A stretch of 59,758 nt of DNA, filler included, from Candidatus Babelota bacterium (GTDB lineage: Bacteria > JAGOBX01): NCBI GenBank assembly GCA_017999075.1. It is 8 parts of 8 records of this genome, joined end to end, with 100 filler letters (N's around TTAATTAATTAA, not from the genome) between each part and the next. Parts side by side here need not be neighbours in the genome. Positions count along the whole stretch, not along the records: positions 7,601 to 15,053 come from JAGOBX010000164.1; 7 more parts are not named here. One strand, 5' to 3'. This document shows positions 7,501-52,438 of the stretch, piece by piece; within the stretch, counting starts at the first letter, position 1, and each line of letters begins with the position of its first letter. The notes under the pieces are model-generated. The model was not told the origin of the DNA. It worked only from the letters and a program-made list of their open reading frames with translations, and ran no database searches. A program made the translations under genes and the position numbers.

Positions 7501-7600
7501 NNNNNNNNNNNNNNNNNNNNNNNNNNNNNNNNNNNNNNNNNNNNTTAATTAATTAANNNNNNNNNNNNNNNNNNNNNNNNNNNNNNNNNNNNNNNNNNNN
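7501..7600. other. Artificial contig linker
   Basis: N44-TTAATTAATTAA-N44, giving stops in all six frames. Confidence 0.99.
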
Positions 7601-7797
7601 ACATCGAGCATAATGTAGCCTTTGATGTTTTTGCTGTTCTTAGCGGTGTAGTATTTGAAATATTTGCGGTTGAATAATCCCGTTAATGCGTCCTTTAGTC
7701 CAACCAAGTGATGAATGTCCGTCTGTTCCAACGCTTCACTGAAAATATAAAATGAAACTCGTAATGTAATGATCATAGCTTTAAGGTATTTAACCAT
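7601..7797 (-). CDS. GGDEF-domain protein, N-terminal fragment (3' truncated)
   Basis: KDALTGLFNRKYF...GYIMLD(V) is the canonical GGDEF start; only ~35 aa precede it; CAGGAG RBS. Confidence 0.75.
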
Positions 7798-7820
7798 TGT
7801 AAATCAACTCCTGTGTTATA

Positions 7821-7859
7821 AAATAAAAAAGGCGCAGAGCTATTAAAGCGCCGCGCCTT
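7821..7859 (-). terminator. Intrinsic-terminator-like hairpin downstream of the integrase
   Basis: Minus strand AAGGCGCGG-CGCTTTAATAGCT-CTGCGCCTT followed by TTTTATTTT. Confidence 0.7.
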
Positions 7860-7936
7860 ATGTGAAAATATTCGGAAAATGTAGTAATGAGAAAAAATGC
7901 CGCTTATTTATTTGGCTTGCCTTTAAATAATGCCAA

Positions 7937-8773
7937 TTATTTATCCAATAAGCTCTTGATCTTTGAGATATGGCTCGTTGAAACCTGAGTGTAAATTGTA
8001 GTCGTGGAAATATCATTATGCCCGAGCAAAATCTGTATTGTCCTGAGATCCGTTCCAGCTTCCAATAAGTGGCTAGCCCCTGTCCGACGCAAGCCGTGAG
8101 GTGAAACTTGCTTATCAATATTACAACGCTCTAGTCCCTGTTCCATAATGTGTTCTACTGTGCGGACAGTTAAATGTGCTCCAGGCTTCTGACCCTCGAA
8201 CAACCATTCCTGCGGTTTATATTCCATGTAATATTCACGTAGCCAGCCCAGAACTTTTTCTGATAATATTGTAATGCGTTCCTTGCCACCTTTGGCCACT
8301 CGAACATTGACAATCATTTGCTTTGAATCAATGTCGCCTTTGCACTTGAGGTTAACTAACTCGTTAACTCGAAGCATTGAAGAATACAGCAGACCCAAGA
8401 TGCAACGATGTTTCAGATTATAGGTTGTCTCCAGCAAATATTGAACTTCGCTTATTGTCAGAACTTCTTTCAGCTTATGATGTTTAACTTTAATGTAATG
8501 AAGTTCATCGTTCCATTTGCGTTTCAATATAATCTCGGTGAAAAGTTTAATTGCAGAAATAGCGGAATTGTAATATTGCTCAGCTTCTGGGACACTGGTT
8601 CTTAAGTTGAGAAAATAGCTGCGTATCATCTCATCCGTCACTTGAGAAAGATCACAGTCAATCCATTTCGCTAACTGTCCAACGTATGATGTATAGGTTC
8701 CAATGGATGAATTAGCTTTACCTGACAGTAGCATTTGATCAACGAATTTAGAAATTGTTTCTTGATTAGACAT
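7937..8773 (-). CDS. Tyrosine recombinase (integron-integrase-like/XerD-like, N-terminal SAM-like domain, no IntI-specific insert)
   Basis: Full catalytic set: R (SMLRVNE), K (AKGGK), HxxR (HGLR), H (LLGH), Y (TTIYT). Likely start MSNQE at 8773 with AGGTGA RBS, overlapping the upstream gene stop. Confidence 0.93.
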   Translation of the reverse strand: MSNQETISKFVDQMLLSGKANSSIGTYTSYVGQLAKWIDCDLSQVTDEMIRSYFLNLRTSVPEAEQYYNSAISAIKLFTEIILKRKWNDELHYIKVKHHKLKEVLTISEVQYLLETTYNLKHRCILGLLYSSMLRVNELVNLKCKGDIDSKQMIVNVRVAKGGKERITILSEKVLGWLREYYMEYKPQEWLFEGQKPGAHLTVRTVEHIMEQGLERCNIDKQVSPHGLRRTGASHLLEAGTDLRTIQILLGHNDISTTTIYTQVSTSHISKIKSLLDK

Positions 8774-8966
8774 TGCGATCACCTGCCTGGATATTAAGTT
8801 TTGATATAGCATTACCAATTTTTGTTTTGTCGCTATAAAGATAATACTCGTCAATAATTTTAACGATCATTTTGGTAATTGGAATTCCTTCAGCGGTAGC
8901 CAGAATTTTAAGTTTTGTACTGGTTTCATACGGGATAGTACAGCTCCGTTCAAATGGGTATGCCAT
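8766..8966 (-). CDS. Small ribbon-helix-helix-like DNA-binding protein
   Basis: 66 aa; short strand followed by TKLKILATAEGIPITKMIVKIIDEY (CopG/RHH-like helix pair); AAGGAG RBS; overlaps the integrase start by 8 nt. Confidence 0.6.
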   Translation of the reverse strand: MAYPFERSCTIPYETSTKLKILATAEGIPITKMIVKIIDEYYLYSDKTKIGNAISKLNIQAGDRNV

Positions 8967-9025
8967 AATGACATCAACTCCTTTGTATAAAATTTAAAAT
9001 TTGTGATGAAGTGAAATGAATAAAA

Positions 9026-9061
9026 AATGGCGATATGTGCTGATGCACACAAAGCATAAAT
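9026..9061. repeat. Diverged fourth copy of the hairpin repeat
   Basis: AATGGCGATATGTGCTGATGCACACAAAGCATAAAT aligns to AATAGCGATATACTCGATGAGCATAAGGCATAAAT (9660-9694); stem 9034-9040/9045-9051 preserved. Confidence 0.65.
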
Positions 9062-9067
9062 GCGGAA

Positions 9068-9547
9068 CTATTTTTCTAAATGAAATAGCGGCAACTTTAA
9101 TTGAAGTGTGTCGTAGTCGTGTAACAGAATTGATTTGCGATATTGTGCGGCGTAATTCAGCTCGTGCGTAGTGCCCAAGCTTCTGTTTAATCTGTAGGCG
9201 TTACAGATATCGCAATCGGCCAGCATTTCCTTATTTCGACTTATAATCCCAGCTAAATATTGATTGCAATGTGATTCAATGATAATCGCGCCCATTTTTA
9301 TAGCTTGATGGATAAACGGCTTAACCACTAGCGGAATGTTATCCAGCTTCTTCGCCAGCCAAATATGAACTTTAGAGCAATCGTTTTTAGCGATAAAATA
9401 CTTTACAGCTTCAATTGAAATACCAGCGCATCCACCTGTAGAAAATACAGTTTGCTTTGATAGTGTAAGCTGATCCAATGTTGAATGCAGGTCAACTATC
9501 ATGTCATCAGTTAAAGTACGAGAACCAATTAGACAGATTTTGTTCAT
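9068..9547 (-). CDS. SLOG superfamily (DprA/Smf/YspA-like) Rossmann-fold protein, 159 aa
   Basis: ICLIGSR, STGGCAG, ISRNKEM and SLGTTHELNYA motifs; true start MNKIC at 9547 with AGGAGG RBS. The longer ORF call runs through a non-coding repeat array. Confidence 0.8.
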   Translation of the reverse strand: MNKICLIGSRTLTDDMIVDLHSTLDQLTLSKQTVFSTGGCAGISIEAVKYFIAKNDCSKVHIWLAKKLDNIPLVVKPFIHQAIKMGAIIIESHCNQYLAGIISRNKEMLADCDICNAYRLNRSLGTTHELNYAAQYRKSILLHDYDTLQLKLPLFHLEK

Positions 9548-9608
9548 AGTAAATCCTCCTGTGATAAATTTAGTATTGAAAATTAATGATAAGAAATTTG
9601 GTGTGATT

Positions 9609-9742
9609 AAGTAGCGGCCAATAATGTAGTAGCGATATGCACAATGCGCATAAGGTATAAATAGCGATATACTCGATGAGCATAAGGCATAAATAGCGGC
9701 AAAATTATAAGTAGCGATATGCACAATGCGCATAAGGCAAAT
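9609..9742. repeat. Array of 28-bp hairpin repeats interleaved with short TAGCGGC units
   Basis: AGTAGCGATATGCACAATGCGCATAAGG exact at 9628-9655 and 9710-9737; 23/28 variant at 9660-9687; TAGCG cores at 9612, 9630, 9662, 9694 and 9712. Confidence 0.9.
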
Positions 9743-9760
9743 GCTGATAATAGCTATAAA

Positions 9761-9806
9761 CACAAAAAGCCGAATACACCATGGACGGCATACTCGGCTC
9801 TTTGTG
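9761..9806 (-). other. 21-bp strand-specific hairpin (terminator, RNA or ssDNA structure)
   Basis: Minus strand CACAAAGAGCCGAGTATGCCG-TCCA-TGGTGTATTCGGCTTTTTGTG pairs at all 21 positions, five by G.T. Confidence 0.8.
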
Positions 9807-9852
9807 CGGTGAGAATAATAATGAGAGAAAATGCGCATATTCTTTTAACTGA

Positions 9853-10161
9853 TTACAGCTTGATACTAGAAAACGGCTTTACATCCCAGTAAAGATCACG
9901 GTCAACTTCAATACCTCTAACACTGATTTCAGAAAGTTCGCTTAATGAAACGTAGCCCCATTCTGCCATTTCAAGATCACCGTTCAATATGCAATAGCCG
10001 AACATCAGATCAAAATCACTGTGATCAATTTCAGCAATATACCAGTCGCAATTTCCGATGAAAAAATGCAGATAAATTAATTTGTCTTTGCAGCTTACAT
10101 TCTCAGTTGAATAAAGATCAGGCACATTTTTCAATTCGTTAATACTTGGTTTGTTCCACAT
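9853..10161 (-). CDS. DUF2958-like protein (typical of plasmids, ICEs and phages)
   Basis: PDLYSTE...HFF...DWYIAE...MFGY...EWGYVSLSEL...VDRDLYW pattern; start ATG 10161 (or GTG 10170). Confidence 0.8.
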   Translation of the reverse strand: MWNKPSINELKNVPDLYSTENVSCKDKLIYLHFFIGNCDWYIAEIDHSDFDLMFGYCILNGDLEMAEWGYVSLSELSEISVRGIEVDRDLYWDVKPFSSIKL

Positions 10162-10277
10162 AAAAAACACGCTCCATTTTTAAGATTTAAAATAAAACAC
10201 TTGCTTTTGGGTAAGCTTCGAGTAGCAGTAAATATGGCAGATTTGCAGTAAGTGCAGGGACTTTCGAGACTTTTCAT
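10131..10277 (-). CDS. Possible 48-aa double-CxxC microprotein
   Basis: MKSLESPCTYCKSAIFTATRSLPKSKCFILNLKNGACFLCGTNQVLTN; GGAGG upstream but only 2 nt from the ATG; overlaps the DUF2958 start. Confidence 0.3.
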   Translation of the reverse strand: MKSLESPCTYCKSAIFTATRSLPKSKCFILNLKNGACFLCGTNQVLTN

Positions 10278-10326
10278 CACCTCCAGTTGTTCGGATAAGT
10301 CGTTTAATGCGGGAATGTTGTAGCGG

Positions 10327-10368
10327 AAATAAAAAAGCCGCCCAAGCTTTTAAAGGCTCGAACGGCTT
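10327..10368 (-). terminator. Intrinsic-terminator-like hairpin at the head of the minus-strand gene run
   Basis: Minus strand AAGCCGTTCGAGC-CTTTAAAA-GCTTGGGCGGCTT (13 bp, 3 G.T) followed by TTTTATTT. Confidence 0.7.
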
Positions 10369-10592
10369 CCAGTGTAAAATTTGATATTGAAAGTTTAATA
10401 GGTAAGAGTACGTGGCTCGGAACTAATGGGTCCCCTCGGTATAGATATTGCCTATCTCCAGCATGAATGATTTTCTGAAATTTGCATATTAGAAATTTCT
10501 ATAATTTTTTTCTGTAAAAATTGGGCTATAAGGGAAGTATGATAGCATATTCTTTGTTATAAAATAAATTCTCGAAAATTTTCACTATTAAC

Positions 10593-10621
10593 TTGAATGT
10601 TTAAAAAAGTTATGGTATAAT
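10593..10621 (+). promoter_or_regulatory. Sigma70 promoter with extended -10 for the res-mod operon
   Basis: TTGAAT (10593-10598), 17 bp spacer, TGGTATAAT (TGnTATAAT, -10 at 10616-10621). Confidence 0.7.
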
Positions 10622-10660
10622 ATAATGAATTTTTTTATATATTTTTTTATGTAGGTATCT

Positions 10661-13648
10661 ATGGCAGATAATCCAATTTTAAATAATCCATATTTGGAAC
10701 CAAAAATATATTATAATACCGATATACAGGGAAATTTAGATTATTCGGATATAAAAAAAGGGCGGCGTATTTATTCTCACGATATAACACCGCAGCCGAC
10801 ACAAAGACCCAATACTCAACAAGGACTTTTCAATATTTCAGATATACAGGACAGATATGAAGAACATTTAATTAATGTTTTAAGAAAAGAAGTTAGTATC
10901 TGGCGAAAAAACAAATACCCGAACACTACAAGAATTACAAAATTATTACTTGACTATTGGTTTGATAGCGCCGACAGAATTGATTATCATAAATTATTTT
11001 TTGCGCAGCAGGAAGCGGTTGAGACTGCAATATTTCTAAATGAAATTGCAGATAAATCAAATTCAGGGCAAGCTATATTAAACAGATTAAGAAACGGTCA
11101 GGTTATTGTCGAAAAAAATTCTCAGTTCAATCTACCTCGCATTGCGTTCAAGATGGCGACAGGGTCTGGCAAAACTGTTGTAATGGCTATGCTGATACTT
11201 TACCATTTTTATAATCGGCTTGAATACAGAAATGATACACGCTTTGCAGATAATTTTATAATTATAGCGCCAGGTATCACTATTAAGGACCGCCTTGGCG
11301 TTTTATATGTTGATACTCAAAATAATTCTATTCAAAATATTCAGGATTATTATCGAACGCGGCGTTTGATTCCACAAAATTATGAACAGGATTTATTACA
11401 GCTTAATTCCAAACTGATAATAACAAATTACCACTCTTTCGAACAGAAAGTTTTAAAAGGAAACAAAAAAACTCCTTTTGACGGCAAAATAGGCGCGGAT
11501 GGAAAAAAGGTTAGGGAACTTGAAGATTATTCGCTTGTTTTAAAAAGAATCGTTGGCAAATTTAAAAAAGGGTCAAGAATTTTGGTTATTAATGATGAAG
11601 CGCATCATTGTTATTTGCCGAAAGTAAAAGAGAAAAACGTTAAACACGATGATTCGGAAGGGGAAAACGAACGCGCATCAATTTGGTTCAATGGTATAGT
11701 AGAACTTTCAAAACAATATCAATTACGGTATGTCTATGATTTAAGCGCAACACCATATTTTCTTCAAGGCTCTGGGTATGAATCATATTCATTATTTCCC
11801 TGGACTGTTTCTGATTTTGGTTTAATAGAAGCTATCGAATCTGGGTTGGTAAAGATTCCGTTTTTACCTGAATCAGATTCAACACAGCAAATAGAAATGC
11901 CTGTGTTACGAAATCTTTATGAACATATAAAAAAAGATTTACCTAAAAAAGGCGCGAGTTCATTAAAATTATCAGGCGCGCCTAAGTTGCCCGAACTTAT
12001 AAAAATTGCGTTGGATCAATTCTATTCGCATTATGAAAAATCATATAATGAATTTCGTGATTTATTTGGAAATCCGCCAGTATTCATAATTGTTTGTAAT
12101 AATACCAATGTGTCTTCCGAAGTATTTAAATATATAGCTGGTTATGAAATTGACCGAGAAGATAAAACCAAATTAATTATTCCAGGTAATTTTGAGTTAT
12201 TCAGCAATTACCAAAAAGATACTTTAAAACCTTTGGATAAATGTCCCACTCTTTTGATTGATTCAAATGCTCTTGAAAATTCAGAGCAAATAGATGAACA
12301 ATTTAAAAAGATTTTTACTTCGGAAATTGAAATTTTCAAAAAAGAATATCGTATAATGCATCCAGATAAATCAGCCGATAATCTTATTGACTCCGATATA
12401 TTGCGTGAAGTAGTAAATACAGTTGGCAAACAAGGAATGCTTGGCGGACATATCAGATGCGTTGTTTCTGTATCAATGCTGACCGAAGGCTGGGACGCAA
12501 ATACCGTTACGCATATAATGGGAATTCGAGCGTTCGGTTCTCAATTATTATGCGAACAGGTAGCTGGCAGAGCATTACGGCGTTCATCATATTTTTTAGG
12601 GAAAGATGGTAAATTTCCGCCTGAATATGCGCATATAATCGGCGTTCCTTTCAGATTCTTTAAGGGCGGCAAATCAGCAGCGGTTATAGTTCAGGATGAT
12701 ATTAAAATAATTAAAGCATTACAGGAAAGGGAAAAATATGAAATTATCTTTCCAAATATAACTGGATACCGCGTTGAATCCGAATCGCAAATATATGAAG
12801 CTGATTTTAGCAAAGTGGAAGATTATGTAATTGATGGTTCTGTTTTACCTGTTCAGACAGATATGAAAAATGCTTTTTCGTCTGATAAAGAAATATTAAC
12901 GCTCGAAAAATGCAAAGAAAAACGGGAACAAGAATTAATTTACCTGATTACCAAAAATTTATTGTCGTTTTACTATTCCGATATAAATGGATTTCCAGAA
13001 TTTCAATTATTCAATCAATTGAAGAAAATAGTTCACGAATGGTATGAATTCAAAATTAAGTTATCTGGACCTGCATTTAAACAGATGTTATATTATTGCG
13101 AGCCGAAAAATATTTGTAATCACATTAAACGCGGAATAGATTCTAAAAATATAAATTCTACAAAAATATTCCCAGTTTTTAATTATTATAACAAACTCGG
13201 TTCGACAAAATATGTGCACGGCGCTACTTCAAAAGAAATTTATGCGACAAAAAACAGTCATATTAATTATGTTGTCGCTGATACTAAGAGTTGGGAACAG
13301 ATTGCCGCTAAAACATTTGAAGAACTATCGGACAAAATTTATTGTTATGTAAAAAATGCTTTTCTCGGTTTTTCTATTCCTTATATAAAAGATGATAAAG
13401 ACAGGCAATATTTTCCAGATTTTATTGTAAAATGTAAGACAAAAAATAAAAAATTTATTAATTTGATTGTTGAAATTACAGGGATGAATCAGGATAAATC
13501 TGAAAAACGCTGGTATTTGTTGAATAGGTGGTTGCCAGCAGTTAACAGTGTGTCTGAAATGTATGGATATGACAAATTCGATTTTATGGAAATTTCGGAT
13601 ATAAAAAATATTAAAGAGTTATTGCGGATAAAAATTCAATCACTATAA
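10661..13648 (+). CDS. res: Type III-like restriction endonuclease subunit (SF2 helicase + PD-(D/E)xK nuclease; resembles BPTD_3080 family)
   Basis: MATGSGKT, NDEAHH, LSATP, LTEGWD, EQVAGRALRR and C-terminal YFPDFIV...VEITG motifs; followed by a DNA methyltransferase. Confidence 0.9.
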   Translation: MADNPILNNPYLEPKIYYNTDIQGNLDYSDIKKGRRIYSHDITPQPTQRPNTQQGLFNISDIQDRYEEHLINVLRKEVSIWRKNKYPNTTRITKLLLDYWFDSADRIDYHKLFFAQQEAVETAIFLNEIADKSNSGQAILNRLRNGQVIVEKNSQFNLPRIAFKMATGSGKTVVMAMLILYHFYNRLEYRNDTRFADNFIIIAPGITIKDRLGVLYVDTQNNSIQNIQDYYRTRRLIPQNYEQDLLQLNSKLIITNYHSFEQKVLKGNKKTPFDGKIGADGKKVRELEDYSLVLKRIVGKFKKGSRILVINDEAHHCYLPKVKEKNVKHDDSEGENERASIWFNGIVELSKQYQLRYVYDLSATPYFLQGSGYESYSLFPWTVSDFGLIEAIESGLVKIPFLPESDSTQQIEMPVLRNLYEHIKKDLPKKGASSLKLSGAPKLPELIKIALDQFYSHYEKSYNEFRDLFGNPPVFIIVCNNTNVSSEVFKYIAGYEIDREDKTKLIIPGNFELFSNYQKDTLKPLDKCPTLLIDSNALENSEQIDEQFKKIFTSEIEIFKKEYRIMHPDKSADNLIDSDILREVVNTVGKQGMLGGHIRCVVSVSMLTEGWDANTVTHIMGIRAFGSQLLCEQVAGRALRRSSYFLGKDGKFPPEYAHIIGVPFRFFKGGKSAAVIVQDDIKIIKALQEREKYEIIFPNITGYRVESESQIYEADFSKVEDYVIDGSVLPVQTDMKNAFSSDKEILTLEKCKEKREQELIYLITKNLLSFYYSDINGFPEFQLFNQLKKIVHEWYEFKIKLSGPAFKQMLYYCEPKNICNHIKRGIDSKNINSTKIFPVFNYYNKLGSTKYVHGATSKEIYATKNSHINYVVADTKSWEQIAAKTFEELSDKIYCYVKNAFLGFSIPYIKDDKDRQYFPDFIVKCKTKNKKFINLIVEITGMNQDKSEKRWYLLNRWLPAVNSVSEMYGYDKFDFMEISDIKNIKELLRIKIQSL

Positions 13649-13662
13649 GGAGAAATCAGTAG

Positions 13663-15053
13663 ATGACTGTCGAATCAATAAAACACAAACATAATAAACG
13701 GGCATTTATTCCTTCGGTATCTGAAGCAGGTCAGGAAACAGACAATCAAATCGTGAAGGAAAAGAAAAGTATTAAAATGGTTCGCAATCCGATTGTTCAG
13801 CGCGGTCAGGATCCCGAATTATACTGGATGAATAAATACGGCGCTGACGATACAGAAAAATTTTCTGAAGTGGATATTCGTTCGTTATACCGCATTGAAC
13901 ATATCTCGCCTGAAATGTTGATACAAAAATTATATAAAATCAAAGAAATTCCAGCTGAACAATTATCGTTAATGGATTTATTCGGTAATTCAATAAATAT
14001 CGATGAACTCGAAAAAGTCGGCGAATATTACAAACACCAGGATAACTGGACGAATAGAATGATTCTCGGCGATTCCCAGCTTGTAATGACATCGCTGTTA
14101 GAACGCGAAGGGCTTGCAGGCAAGGTTCAAACAATTTTTTTTGATCCGCCTTATGGTATTAAATACGGTTCAAACTGGCAGATTAAATTGAATAATAAAA
14201 ATGTTACAGACGGCAAAGACGAACATCTCAGCGGCGAACCAGAACAAATAAAAGCATACCGCGATACTTGGGAATTGGGAATACATTCGTATCTGAGTTA
14301 TCTGCGCGACAGATTGCTGGTAGCTCAAAAATTACTTACTGAAAGCGGAAGTTGCTTTGTCCAGATTTCTGATGAAAATGTACATCTCGTTAGATGCCTG
14401 ATGGATGAGGTTTTTGGAAGCGCAAATTTTGTGAGTTTGATTAGTTTTTCTACAACAAGCGGTTTTGAAAGTAAAACAATATCAAGAGCTGGTGATTATA
14501 TTTTATGGTATGCTAAAGATATTGAAACTGTTAAATATCGACAACTTTATTTAGAAAAACAAGATGATACAAGTGGTTATAATAAAATTGAATTAGAAAA
14601 TGGAGAACGTCGAAGTTTAACAAAAGAAGAAAAAGAAAATTCTTTACTTATTCCTAAAAATTCAAAAATATATTCTTCAGGAGCGTTATTTAGTCCAGGA
14701 GAATCACCAGAGGGATCAAAATCTTTTATTTTTAAAAATAAAGAATATAAACCTTCCAGCGGGCATTGGAAAACTACTTTAAAGGGGTTGGAAAAACTAA
14801 CTCAACTGAATAGAATTGAAGTTTCAGGAAATACTATAAGATATGTTCGATATTTTAATGATTTTCCACTTGTTCCAATAAATAATATATGGAAAGATAC
14901 ACAAACTTTTATGGATAAATATTATGTAGTTCAAACTTCTCAAAAAATCATCCAGCGCTGTCTCCTAATGACCACCGACCCAGGCGATCTTGTTCTTGAC
15001 CCGACCTGCGGCAGCGGCACGTCTGCTTATGTTGCAGAGCAATGGGGCAGACG
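13663..15053 (+). CDS. mod: Amino-DNA methyltransferase, beta class (Type III Mod-like), 3' truncated
   Basis: Motif IV DPPY precedes the variable region and motif I LDPTCGSGT; AGGAG RBS. Confidence 0.92.
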
Positions 15054-15153
15054 NNNNNNNNNNNNNNNNNNNNNNNNNNNNNNNNNNNNNNNNNNNNTTA
15101 ATTAATTAANNNNNNNNNNNNNNNNNNNNNNNNNNNNNNNNNNNNNNNNNNNN
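15054..15153. other. Artificial contig linker
   Basis: N44-TTAATTAATTAA-N44. Confidence 0.99.
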
Positions 15154-22538: not shown

Positions 22539-22638
22539 NNNNNNNNNNNNNNNNNNNNNNNNNNNNNNNNNNNNNNNNNNNNTTAATTAATTAANNNNNN
22601 NNNNNNNNNNNNNNNNNNNNNNNNNNNNNNNNNNNNNN
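22539..22638. other. Artificial contig linker
   Basis: N44-TTAATTAATTAA-N44. Confidence 0.99.
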
Positions 22639-30015: not shown

Positions 30016-30115
30016 NNNNNNNNNNNNNNNNNNNNNNNNNNNNNNNNNNNNNNNNNNNNTTAATTAATTAANNNNNNNNNNNNNNNNNNNNNNNNNNNNN
30101 NNNNNNNNNNNNNNN
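30016..30115. other. Artificial contig linker
   Basis: N44-TTAATTAATTAA-N44. Confidence 0.99.
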
Positions 30116-37478: not shown

Positions 37479-37578
37479 NNNNNNNNNNNNNNNNNNNNNN
37501 NNNNNNNNNNNNNNNNNNNNNNTTAATTAATTAANNNNNNNNNNNNNNNNNNNNNNNNNNNNNNNNNNNNNNNNNNNN
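37479..37578. other. Artificial contig linker
   Basis: N44-TTAATTAATTAA-N44. Confidence 0.99.
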
Positions 37579-44914: not shown

Positions 44915-45014
44915 NNNNNNNNNNNNNNNNNNNNNNNNNNNNNNNNNNNNNNNNNNNNTTAATTAATTAANNNNNNNNNNNNNNNNNNNNNNNNNNNNNN
45001 NNNNNNNNNNNNNN
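44915..45014. other. Artificial contig linker
   Basis: N44-TTAATTAATTAA-N44. Confidence 0.99.
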
Positions 45015-52338: not shown

Positions 52339-52438
52339 NNNNNNNNNNNNNNNNNNNNNNNNNNNNNNNNNNNNNNNNNNNNTTAATTAATTAANNNNNN
52401 NNNNNNNNNNNNNNNNNNNNNNNNNNNNNNNNNNNNNN
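52339..52438. other. Artificial contig linker
   Basis: N44-TTAATTAATTAA-N44. Confidence 0.99.

Follow-up and report, generated by a model that had tools for sequence, protein, structure and literature searches.

A strand-specific box-and-hairpin repeat array ahead of a SLOG-like, RHH-like and Xer-type recombinase gene row, possibly a locally amplified leader element

The minus strand at 9608-9742 of the 59.8-kb stretch of Candidatus Babelota DNA that we analyzed (hereafter the window) carries a real, non-random and strand-specific family of box-and-hairpin repeats. Five units on the same strand, in the order S-L-L'-S-L and with a spacing of 18/32/32/18 nt, stand between an intrinsic terminator and genes for a SLOG-like, a ribbon-helix-helix (RHH)-like and an Xer-type recombinase protein. 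Tentatively, and with clearly less than even confidence, we read the array as a set of locally amplified box-plus-hairpin leader elements of the gene-sense strand, with transcription assumed and RNA as the presumed form.

A 9-nt box, CGCTAYTTA, closes every unit, and a long unit consists of this box and a 23-nt hairpin segment with a 7-pair stem and a 3-nt loop. Read on the minus strand from the side of the terminator, the units follow each other as L3 (32 nt), S2 (18 nt), L2 (32 nt), L1 (32 nt) and S1 (18 nt). A further unit, H, is placed in the spacer between the SLOG-like and RHH-like genes.

9024 to 9064, minus strand: fourth hairpin unit H; box CGCATTTA, linker TGCTT, stem TGTGTGC/GCACATA, 4-nt loop, box CGCCATTTT
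9608 to 9625, minus strand: short unit S1; box CGCTACTTA (sense strand) and a 9-nt spacer, the last box before the SLOG-like gene, 69 nt from its start codon
9626 to 9657, minus strand: long unit L1; 23-nt hairpin segment with stem TATGCGC/GTGCATA and loop ATT, and box
9658 to 9689, minus strand: long unit L2; variant hairpin with stem TATGCTC/GAGTATA and loop ATC, and box CGCTATTTA
9690 to 9707, minus strand: short unit S2; box CGCTATTTA and a 9-nt spacer
9708 to 9739, minus strand: long unit L3; its 28-nt core is the same as that of L1
9740 to 9759, minus strand: degenerate box-like stretch CAGCATTTG, with TAGCT, between the terminator and L3, read from the sequence

The 28-mer AGTAGCGATATGCACAATGCGCATAAGG occurs exactly at 9628-9655 and 9710-9737, and none of 100 dinucleotide-preserving shuffles of the window contained any match to it; the stretch at 9660-9687 differs from it at 5 of 28 positions (23/28 the same). 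TAGCG starts at 9612, 9630, 9662, 9694 and 9712. The preliminary description of this DNA had reported the copies, the variant, the spacing and the five cores, and all of them are present as it said; likewise, the two 7-bp minus-strand stems differing by pairing-preserving substitutions are seen in the sequence, as TATGCGC-ATT-GTGCATA and TATGCTC-ATC-GAGTATA, each with 7 pairs including one G.T. Tandem Repeats Finder returns a 32-nt period over 9630-9698, and a repeat search finds a 48-nt S+L module at 9608 and at 9690, 83% alike. The S2 and L3 boxes form a pair 18 nt apart, of a kind that is also found in relatives. Over the whole window RTAGCG is not enriched (22 occurrences against 21.8 expected), yet a single strand carries 5 of these inside a stretch of 105 nt. 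The array copy number comes from this assembly alone, and of the contig pieces listed from sequencing runs 0 span the array. The 28-nt cores are separated by 4 nt and 22 nt, the 22-nt gap being a repeat unit itself, whereas CRISPR repeats alternate with unique spacers of about 26-40 nt; with no such spacers, and with no Cas family in the five flanking proteins of the 7.45-kb contig, the earlier dismissal of a CRISPR array holds.

The window is composed of eight contigs in falling length (7,500 to about 7,320 bases), joined by linkers of 44 N, TTAATTAATTAA and 44 N at 7501-7600, 15054-15153, 22539-22638, 30016-30115, 37479-37578, 44915-45014 and 52339-52438, across which adjacency is artificial. 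Open reading frames are cut at the linkers, as are a GGDEF fragment (7601-7797) and a methylase (13663-15053). The array contig is the second one (7601-15053, 7.45 kb), and its left part has 38% G+C versus about 29% in the other contigs. Its minus-strand gene order is a short open frame, DUF2958, terminator, array, SLOG-like, RHH-like and Xer-type recombinase.

9853 to 10170, minus strand: DUF2958 gene, from a protein family scan
9760 to 9807, minus strand: intrinsic terminator behind the DUF2958 gene, a 21-pair stem and a U run, kept in 3 of 3 related loci
9068 to 9547, minus strand: SLOG/DprA-like gene (159 aa), the nearest gene downstream of the array, with ATG at 9547 behind GGAGG
8766 to 8966, minus strand: 66-aa RHH-like gene, overlapping the start of the recombinase gene
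7937 to 8854, minus strand: Xer-type tyrosine recombinase gene (305 aa), Phage_integrase 5.7e-37

The array lies about 20 nt behind the DUF2958 terminator and 60 nt ahead of the SLOG-like gene, and the 60 nt between array and gene are AT-rich and contain GGAGG. The SLOG-like protein matches PF18306 and PF02481 both at only E 0.02, and in a relative (P0002) PF18306 is reached at 1.6e-5. A 100-nt spacer separates it from the 66-aa gene. The recombinase gene follows about 750 nt downstream of the array and has another terminator behind it; its best NCBIfam model is XerA-type, at 191.9 bits below the cut-off of 220, and against the integron-integrase model TIGR02249 it scores 127.3 bits versus a cut-off of 265, with the match in two stretches. 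Scanned against Pfam and NCBIfam, five neighboring proteins gave DUF2958, tyrosine recombinase and type III restriction subunit families and no replication, transfer or Cas family. The restriction subunit belongs to a type III restriction-modification pair at 10661-15053 that adjoins the cassette on the opposite strand with 32-33% G+C (res 995 aa, mod cut by the contig end).

An open reading frame at 9068-9838 crosses the array. As the preliminary description had suspected, the ORF track thereby hides the array in a false N-terminal extension: the frame stays open for 99 codons in the window versus 8, 57 and 25 in three related loci, and because this frame is not conserved and the true start is the ATG at 9547 behind GGAGG, the extension through the array is false. 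A coding repeat was dropped as a candidate on the same ground. A promoter consensus scan of the minus strand at 9548-9852 found none. A sigma-70 promoter in the spacer was also rejected, with none found by scan; a perfect TATAAT follows a box in the window and in L102, a related locus introduced below, without a visible matching -35.

Relatives of the cassette show which part of the array is constant. A search of 5.8 billion proteins gave only four clusters, formed at 90% identity, that are related to the SLOG-like protein, with 72-92% identity to it, and three metagenome contigs (L102, L103 and L104) carry a relative of it with gene order and terminator as in the window; the cassette is known from four loci in different samples, from wastewater and digester metagenomes. 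In front of its SLOG-like gene, L102 (SLOG-like protein 92% identical) has two boxes 18 nt apart, the hairpin unit being absent, L103 has two degenerate boxes and likewise no hairpin, and L104 has several boxes and one hairpin unit with a different, perfect stem (TATGTACA/TGTACATA) and a 4-nt loop. Logan contigs from four wastewater/biogas runs of two studies were aligned to the array contig at 88% likeness. In three variant contigs (X1 and X3 among them), all from one study and about 90% identical to the window in the adjoining gene, the array is replaced: 31 letters stand for 9603-9752, or 37 letters for 9599-9756, with GTAGCG-type boxes present and the hairpin unit absent. Because of the identity of only about 90%, and since joints at 88% likeness may come from other organisms, we read them as related elements and not as alleles. 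The count of upstream hairpin units is therefore 3 in the window, 1 in L104 and 0 in L102, L103 and the variant contigs.

The unit in the spacer between the SLOG-like and RHH-like genes also changes place, standing directly behind the stop codon in the window versus behind a shared block, ATTTCACTTCAT, in L102. At 989-1088 of L103, ahead of the RHH-like gene, there is no hairpin unit; a 35-nt inverted repeat, 74% complementary with its arms 30 nt apart, is found there, built of 8-9-nt subrepeats of CTTTGTGCC type in both orientations, and by analogy it looks like the operator array of an RHH protein. Every relative keeps the boxes in the same position, spaced 17-18 nt apart. On this comparison the boxes are the constant component of the element, and the hairpin units come, go and change place. 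L1 and L3 are the same over 28 nt and the adjoining short units differ at 8 of 20 positions, which suggests recent copying. The nearest relatives lack hairpin units ahead of their SLOG-like gene, so the row of three in the window is an expansion specific to its lineage rather than a conserved structure. The preliminary description had weighed its reading against a one-off duplication, lacking further copies or covariation in related loci; both copies and covariation exist there, but the upstream units are missing in the nearest relatives.

Several other features of the cassette were seen. L102 has, at 100-235 and upstream of the conserved region, repeats of GTCCAAGTC with an inverted copy, CTGGACGAGTTGGACG, absent from the window. 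An 18-nt palindrome, AGAAAATGCGCATATTCT, lies at 9826-9843 between the DUF2958 stop codon and the terminator and has the 10-mer AATGCGCATA in common with the long units; its position is kept only partly in L102 and L104. The variant contigs and L102 stop resembling the window at 7911 and at about 10508-10540, and these possible borders may enclose a 2.6-kb element with the recombinase, RHH-like, SLOG-like and DUF2958 genes, whose flanks show no clear direct repeat. Junction modules of 27 nt with a ribosome-binding site occur at 7803-7829, 8973-8999 and 10544-10570, ahead of the GGDEF and RHH-like genes, 78% alike, and a 19-nt stretch recurs behind the stop codons of the recombinase and DUF2958 genes (7882-7900 with 9816-9834, 89% alike). 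L103 and L104 have similar junction stretches ending in AAGGAGCGTG ahead of their genes. Such recurring modules suggest that cassette genes may undergo modular exchange. A 200-nt non-coding stretch at 10330-10545 (minus strand) corresponds to 262-480 of L102 and 1-195 of L104, with 80% mean column identity over the three loci. It has a terminator-like hairpin at its end (10370-10333) and then the boxes CCGCTAC and CCGCATT; behind it come GGAGGTG and a short open frame starting MKSL or MIKSL, whose length differs in the three loci. As a structured RNA the conserved 10330-10540 stretch was rejected, with 0 of 39 predicted pairs covarying in three sequences and no Rfam match.

We aligned the stems of six units, all that the four available loci offered: the three array units, unit H at 9024-9064, and a single unit each from L102 and L104. 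On the gene-sense strand, 42 of 42 stem cells pair in one register across the six units, and 3 of the 7 stem pairs have double changes (6 cells). The covariation score is 0.533 versus 0.268 in shuffles, and was reached by 1 of 500 shuffles; when the partner column is slid by one, pairing falls to 2.4%. Four cells depart from Watson-Crick pairing, and each of them is G.T when read in the sense direction; the opposite strand has A.C clashes in their place, leaving 38 of 42 cells paired there. As L1 and L3 are identical, only three of these G.T events are independent, and a one-sided bias of this kind has a probability of roughly 1 in 8 by chance, counting transitions only; the strand asymmetry is thus suggestive. 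The stems have 7-8 pairs and the loops 3-4 nt; the sequence of stem top and loop is variable, and the stem base and flanks are fixed.

Folding of both strands, proposed in the preliminary description, points the same way: as RNA the sense hairpins reach -6.7 to -11.3 kcal/mol with z of -1.3 to -2.6, versus z of -0.75 to -1.24 on the opposite strand. As DNA the hairpins are weak (-2 to -5.6 kcal/mol). The box words also favor the sense strand in 12 spacers of the four loci (CGCATT 9 to 0 and CCGCTA 7 to 0, sense versus antisense), although homologous spacers are counted, so the counts are not independent. The earlier proposal that selection acts on single-stranded structure and a sequence motif is therefore borne out in part: the dyad is kept via two-sided changes, pairing is cleaner on the minus strand, and the TAGCG box recurs in all relatives, whereas the hairpin units are missing upstream in the nearest ones.

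Within the 59.8 kb searched, the unit family is local to the DUF2958/SLOG/RHH/recombinase cassette. A covariance model of the six units (R1) returned its training units at E 1e-9 to 1e-4, unit H with the top score of all, and a next match at E 0.53, with no other unit in the window or the related loci; a motif scan of the window found 0 further units outside the locus. An Rfam scan and a search of mobile-element sets had been proposed earlier, and both came back empty, with no family for the array and no blastn match for 7601-10660 among plasmids and phages. In addition, tblastn of the SLOG-like and RHH-like proteins against plasmids gave no match. Among viral contigs, the unit pattern had 8 single matches, which is the chance level, the terminator pattern had 0, and of 12 candidates from a recombinase search 0 were confirmed; one SLOG-profile match there of 30% identity (L105) was set aside, its phage-like gene row being tightly packed and free of such repeats. 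In genome contigs, a query with a single protein gave 47 matching stretches, none of which was confirmed. The SLOG profile had 0 matches in 401 genomes of one arbitrarily chosen phylum, a result with no bearing on absence. For host placement, HtpG reached best identities of 39% and 38% over five comparisons, which is uninformative. Literature on DUF2958 yielded nothing relevant to the locus, and that on SLOG nothing on the gene context of this SLOG-like family.

The reading that we tentatively prefer is a small cis-element, made of the 9-nt box with or without a 7-8-pair hairpin, that would decorate the non-coding spacers of the rare DUF2958/SLOG-like/RHH-like/Xer-type recombinase cassette and would have undergone local, lineage-specific amplification. 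It would act on the gene-sense strand, the likeliest form being RNA within the leader and the intercistronic segments of a SLOG-RHH-recombinase transcript, where the single-stranded box and the stem base might be what a protein or nuclease recognizes, and the stem top and loop would need only to pair. Extra copies could shift downstream gene expression via transcript stability, processing or read-through, and units may be gained and lost through slippage or unequal exchange between boxes. Its most likely job would be local control of the SLOG-RHH-recombinase operon. We infer that the array is transcribed and that RNA is the acting form, and infer likewise its action.

A folded sense strand would explain the complementary changes of the inner stem, the varying distance between half-sites, the one-sided mismatches and the sense-only boxes together. 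Variable stem and loop length on a fixed base also fits a folded single strand, in which it would be tolerated, as it would not by a rigid dimer on duplex DNA. RNA is the simplest such form because one unit lies inside the operon spacer, from the SLOG-like stop to the RHH-like start, and co-transcription of the genes, if it occurs, would include this unit. For the array itself transcription is an assumption, given that the scan found no promoter and that a strong terminator lies about 20 nt upstream of its start. Against RNA of the sense strand, the hairpins are short and weak, there is no Rfam family, and no RNA-binding partner has been identified. The hairpin units are also dispensable in L102, L103 and the variant contigs, where none precedes the SLOG-like gene. 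Stems could moreover stay paired in the absence of selection through template-switch correction of quasi-palindromes.

It is possible, if on balance doubtful, that the units are duplex operators instead, to which the RHH-like protein would bind at the dyad units and perhaps the boxes, so as to repress the operon it belongs to both at the array and at the unit that precedes its gene. The array is placed as an operator would be, with the terminator on one side and on the other the leading gene of an operon whose RHH-like product is the only protein of DNA-binding type nearby, another unit immediately precedes the RHH-like gene, and the 32-nt spacing is close to three helical turns; rows of short subsites are typical of RHH-class operators. 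The 66-aa protein itself, whose RHH label comes from the preliminary description, plausibly has this fold in a model from a six-row alignment, which shows an extended N-terminus and two helices at a mean pLDDT of 75; the Foldseek rows listed for the model are nearly all RHH proteins (ParG, Arc, CopG, AmrZ, MatP and antitoxins), with a best E of 0.5 and none significant. By sequence no Pfam, NCBIfam or PDB match names it, which counts against the operator reading, and a search of 1.84 billion representatives gave five true relatives, a sixth match being a low-complexity protein. The window and L102 proteins, 89% identical overall, have the first 44 residues alike and the same kind of hairpin unit, and L103, which differs at residues 6-8 (QPT for ERS), has the subrepeat inverted repeat instead; however, L102 has no hairpin unit upstream of its SLOG-like gene despite the 89% identity. 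More generally, one bound protein cannot explain inner stem bases that differ between units (CGC, CTC, TGC) and yet stay complementary, nor A.C clashes on one strand only, and the distance between the conserved outer half-sites, which varies from 9 to 12 nt, would leave two bound dimers rotated relative to each other.

That the units are instead sites of the neighboring Xer-type recombinase, bound as a duplex core or as an attC-like folded strand with recombination creating the variation in copy number and position, we consider improbable. The gene lies 750 nt downstream, the unit can be drawn as a 27-bp dyad with conserved outer arms and a variable centre, its conserved base and variable paired top of variable length recall the known attC pattern, and the relatives have units at different places or, in the variant contigs, the whole stretch replaced. 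Xer-type core sites have two 11-bp arms and a fixed, asymmetric overlap of 6-8 bp. Arms of about 10 bp, symmetric at 7 of 9 positions, can be drawn here, but with the inner arms as binding sites the centre is palindromic and measures 7, 7, 8 and 10 nt across units, unlike known core sites, and a stem of 7-8 pairs is too short for two recombinase monomers. The attC core motif is absent from the array (in 8960-9860 RYYYAAC/GTTRRRY cores occur only inside the SLOG-like gene, at 9319-9486), the recombinase stays below the integron-integrase cut-off (127 versus 265 bits), and recombination between two units would not be expected to yield relatives devoid of hairpin units. An array without a function of its own appears unlikely, though less so: units would multiply by slippage or unequal exchange between the 9-nt boxes, and the palindromes would be kept by template-switch mutation or spread as selfish units of REP kind. 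The upstream copy number of 3, 1, 0, 0 and 0 (window, L104, L102, L103, variant contigs), the different places of the spacer unit in the window and L102, the identity of L1 and L3 over 28 nt beside short units differing at 8/20, and the two boxes flanking every hairpin segment, as an insertion with duplicated target would show, all fit such turnover. However, all units point one way, mismatches are one-sided, the boxes hold a fixed position and a 17-18-nt spacing in every relative, units are not dispersed within the 59.8 kb (next best R1 match E 0.53, none by motif scan), and no REP-associated transposase was seen in the part of the genome searched. A neutral origin thus explains the turnover and the pairing, and not the strand bias or the conserved boxes. 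Least probable of all, in our view, is a miniature shape-recognized site moved between cassette spacers by the Xer-type recombinase or a host single-strand enzyme; such a module would be far below attC or REP size and could explain the shared junction sequences of the cassette.

If the units act on the sense strand, as we prefer, they would form a compact and easily tested two-part cis-element, a linear box and a shape-only hairpin, and copy number would tune its dosage before an integrase operon in an uncultured bacterium of wastewater or digesters. As operators they would instead mark what a very rare RHH-like family binds. In both cases the finding is small and local, and no long-standing question is opened by it.

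Some known systems differ plainly from the array. Iterons, direct repeats that stand beside a replication initiator gene, were rejected, as no Rep-type family was found among the scanned proteins of the partial contig; no DnaA box (TTATCCACA, at most 1 mismatch) was found in 8960-9860, and AT-rich DNA of 60 nt follows the array. Type III toxin-antitoxin loci have tandem repeats of about 36 nt, a terminator and then a ToxN-type endoribonuclease gene. They were also rejected, with a SLOG/DprA-like gene downstream, no terminator between array and gene, and the repeats absent in L102. In integrons, attC sites are imperfect palindromes of 57-141 nt with RYYYAAC/GTTRRRY cores, and the cassettes are promoterless with one site each. 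The array shares with them the conserved stem base and the variable paired top of variable length, beside an Xer/integron-like tyrosine recombinase; unlike them, its units measure 32 nt and the genes are not promoterless cassettes each with a site.

Closer parallels are found among small regulatory and extragenic elements. The operators of RHH repressors (Arc and Mnt of P22, CopG, omega of pSM19035, ParG) are several short dyad or direct repeats controlling their own operon. The array resembles them in having short dyad or direct repeats before an operon with a small RHH-type protein, at a spacing near whole helical turns, as does L103, whose RHH-like gene is preceded by 8-9-nt subrepeats lined up in both orientations; it differs in inner stems that vary but pair, in varying half-site distance, in one-sided mismatches and in a protein without a named-family match. 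Heptads of omega type (WATCACW) were rejected as a feature of the element, with 4 seen versus 2.6 expected. REP/BIME units are extragenic imperfect palindromes of 20-40 nt with a 5' tetranucleotide of GTAG type, many dispersed copies and a REP-associated tyrosine transposase. The array is similar in its imperfect 30-40-nt palindromes, placed in spacers behind terminators, and in copy number varying between close relatives; on the plus strand GTAG stands just 5' of the palindrome in L1 and L3, and ATAG in L2. Unlike REP/BIME, the units are not dispersed (0 further copies in 59.8 kb), have one orientation and are tied to one cassette in four samples.

The nut modules of lambdoid phages and rrn leaders combine a linear boxA and a boxB hairpin on the transcript. 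Here too a conserved linear box of about 9 nt and a short hairpin of variable sequence lie on the sense strand of operon leaders and spacers. From one box to the hairpin there are 5-6 nt, and from the hairpin to the following box 2 nt. The boxA consensus of gamma-proteobacteria is GYTCTTTAANA, with C at position 4 reported as critical (PMC5725501). The array boxes resemble this consensus weakly, matching at 6-8 of 11 positions and having A at the critical position 4; the host is not a known gamma-proteobacterium. Unlike nut, the modules stand behind the nearest terminator, which lies upstream of the array, another following the recombinase gene; they come in several tandem copies, and no N-like protein has been identified. 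While matching none of them fully on the features compared, the element most resembles known small cis-elements, namely operators, nut-type modules and REP units.
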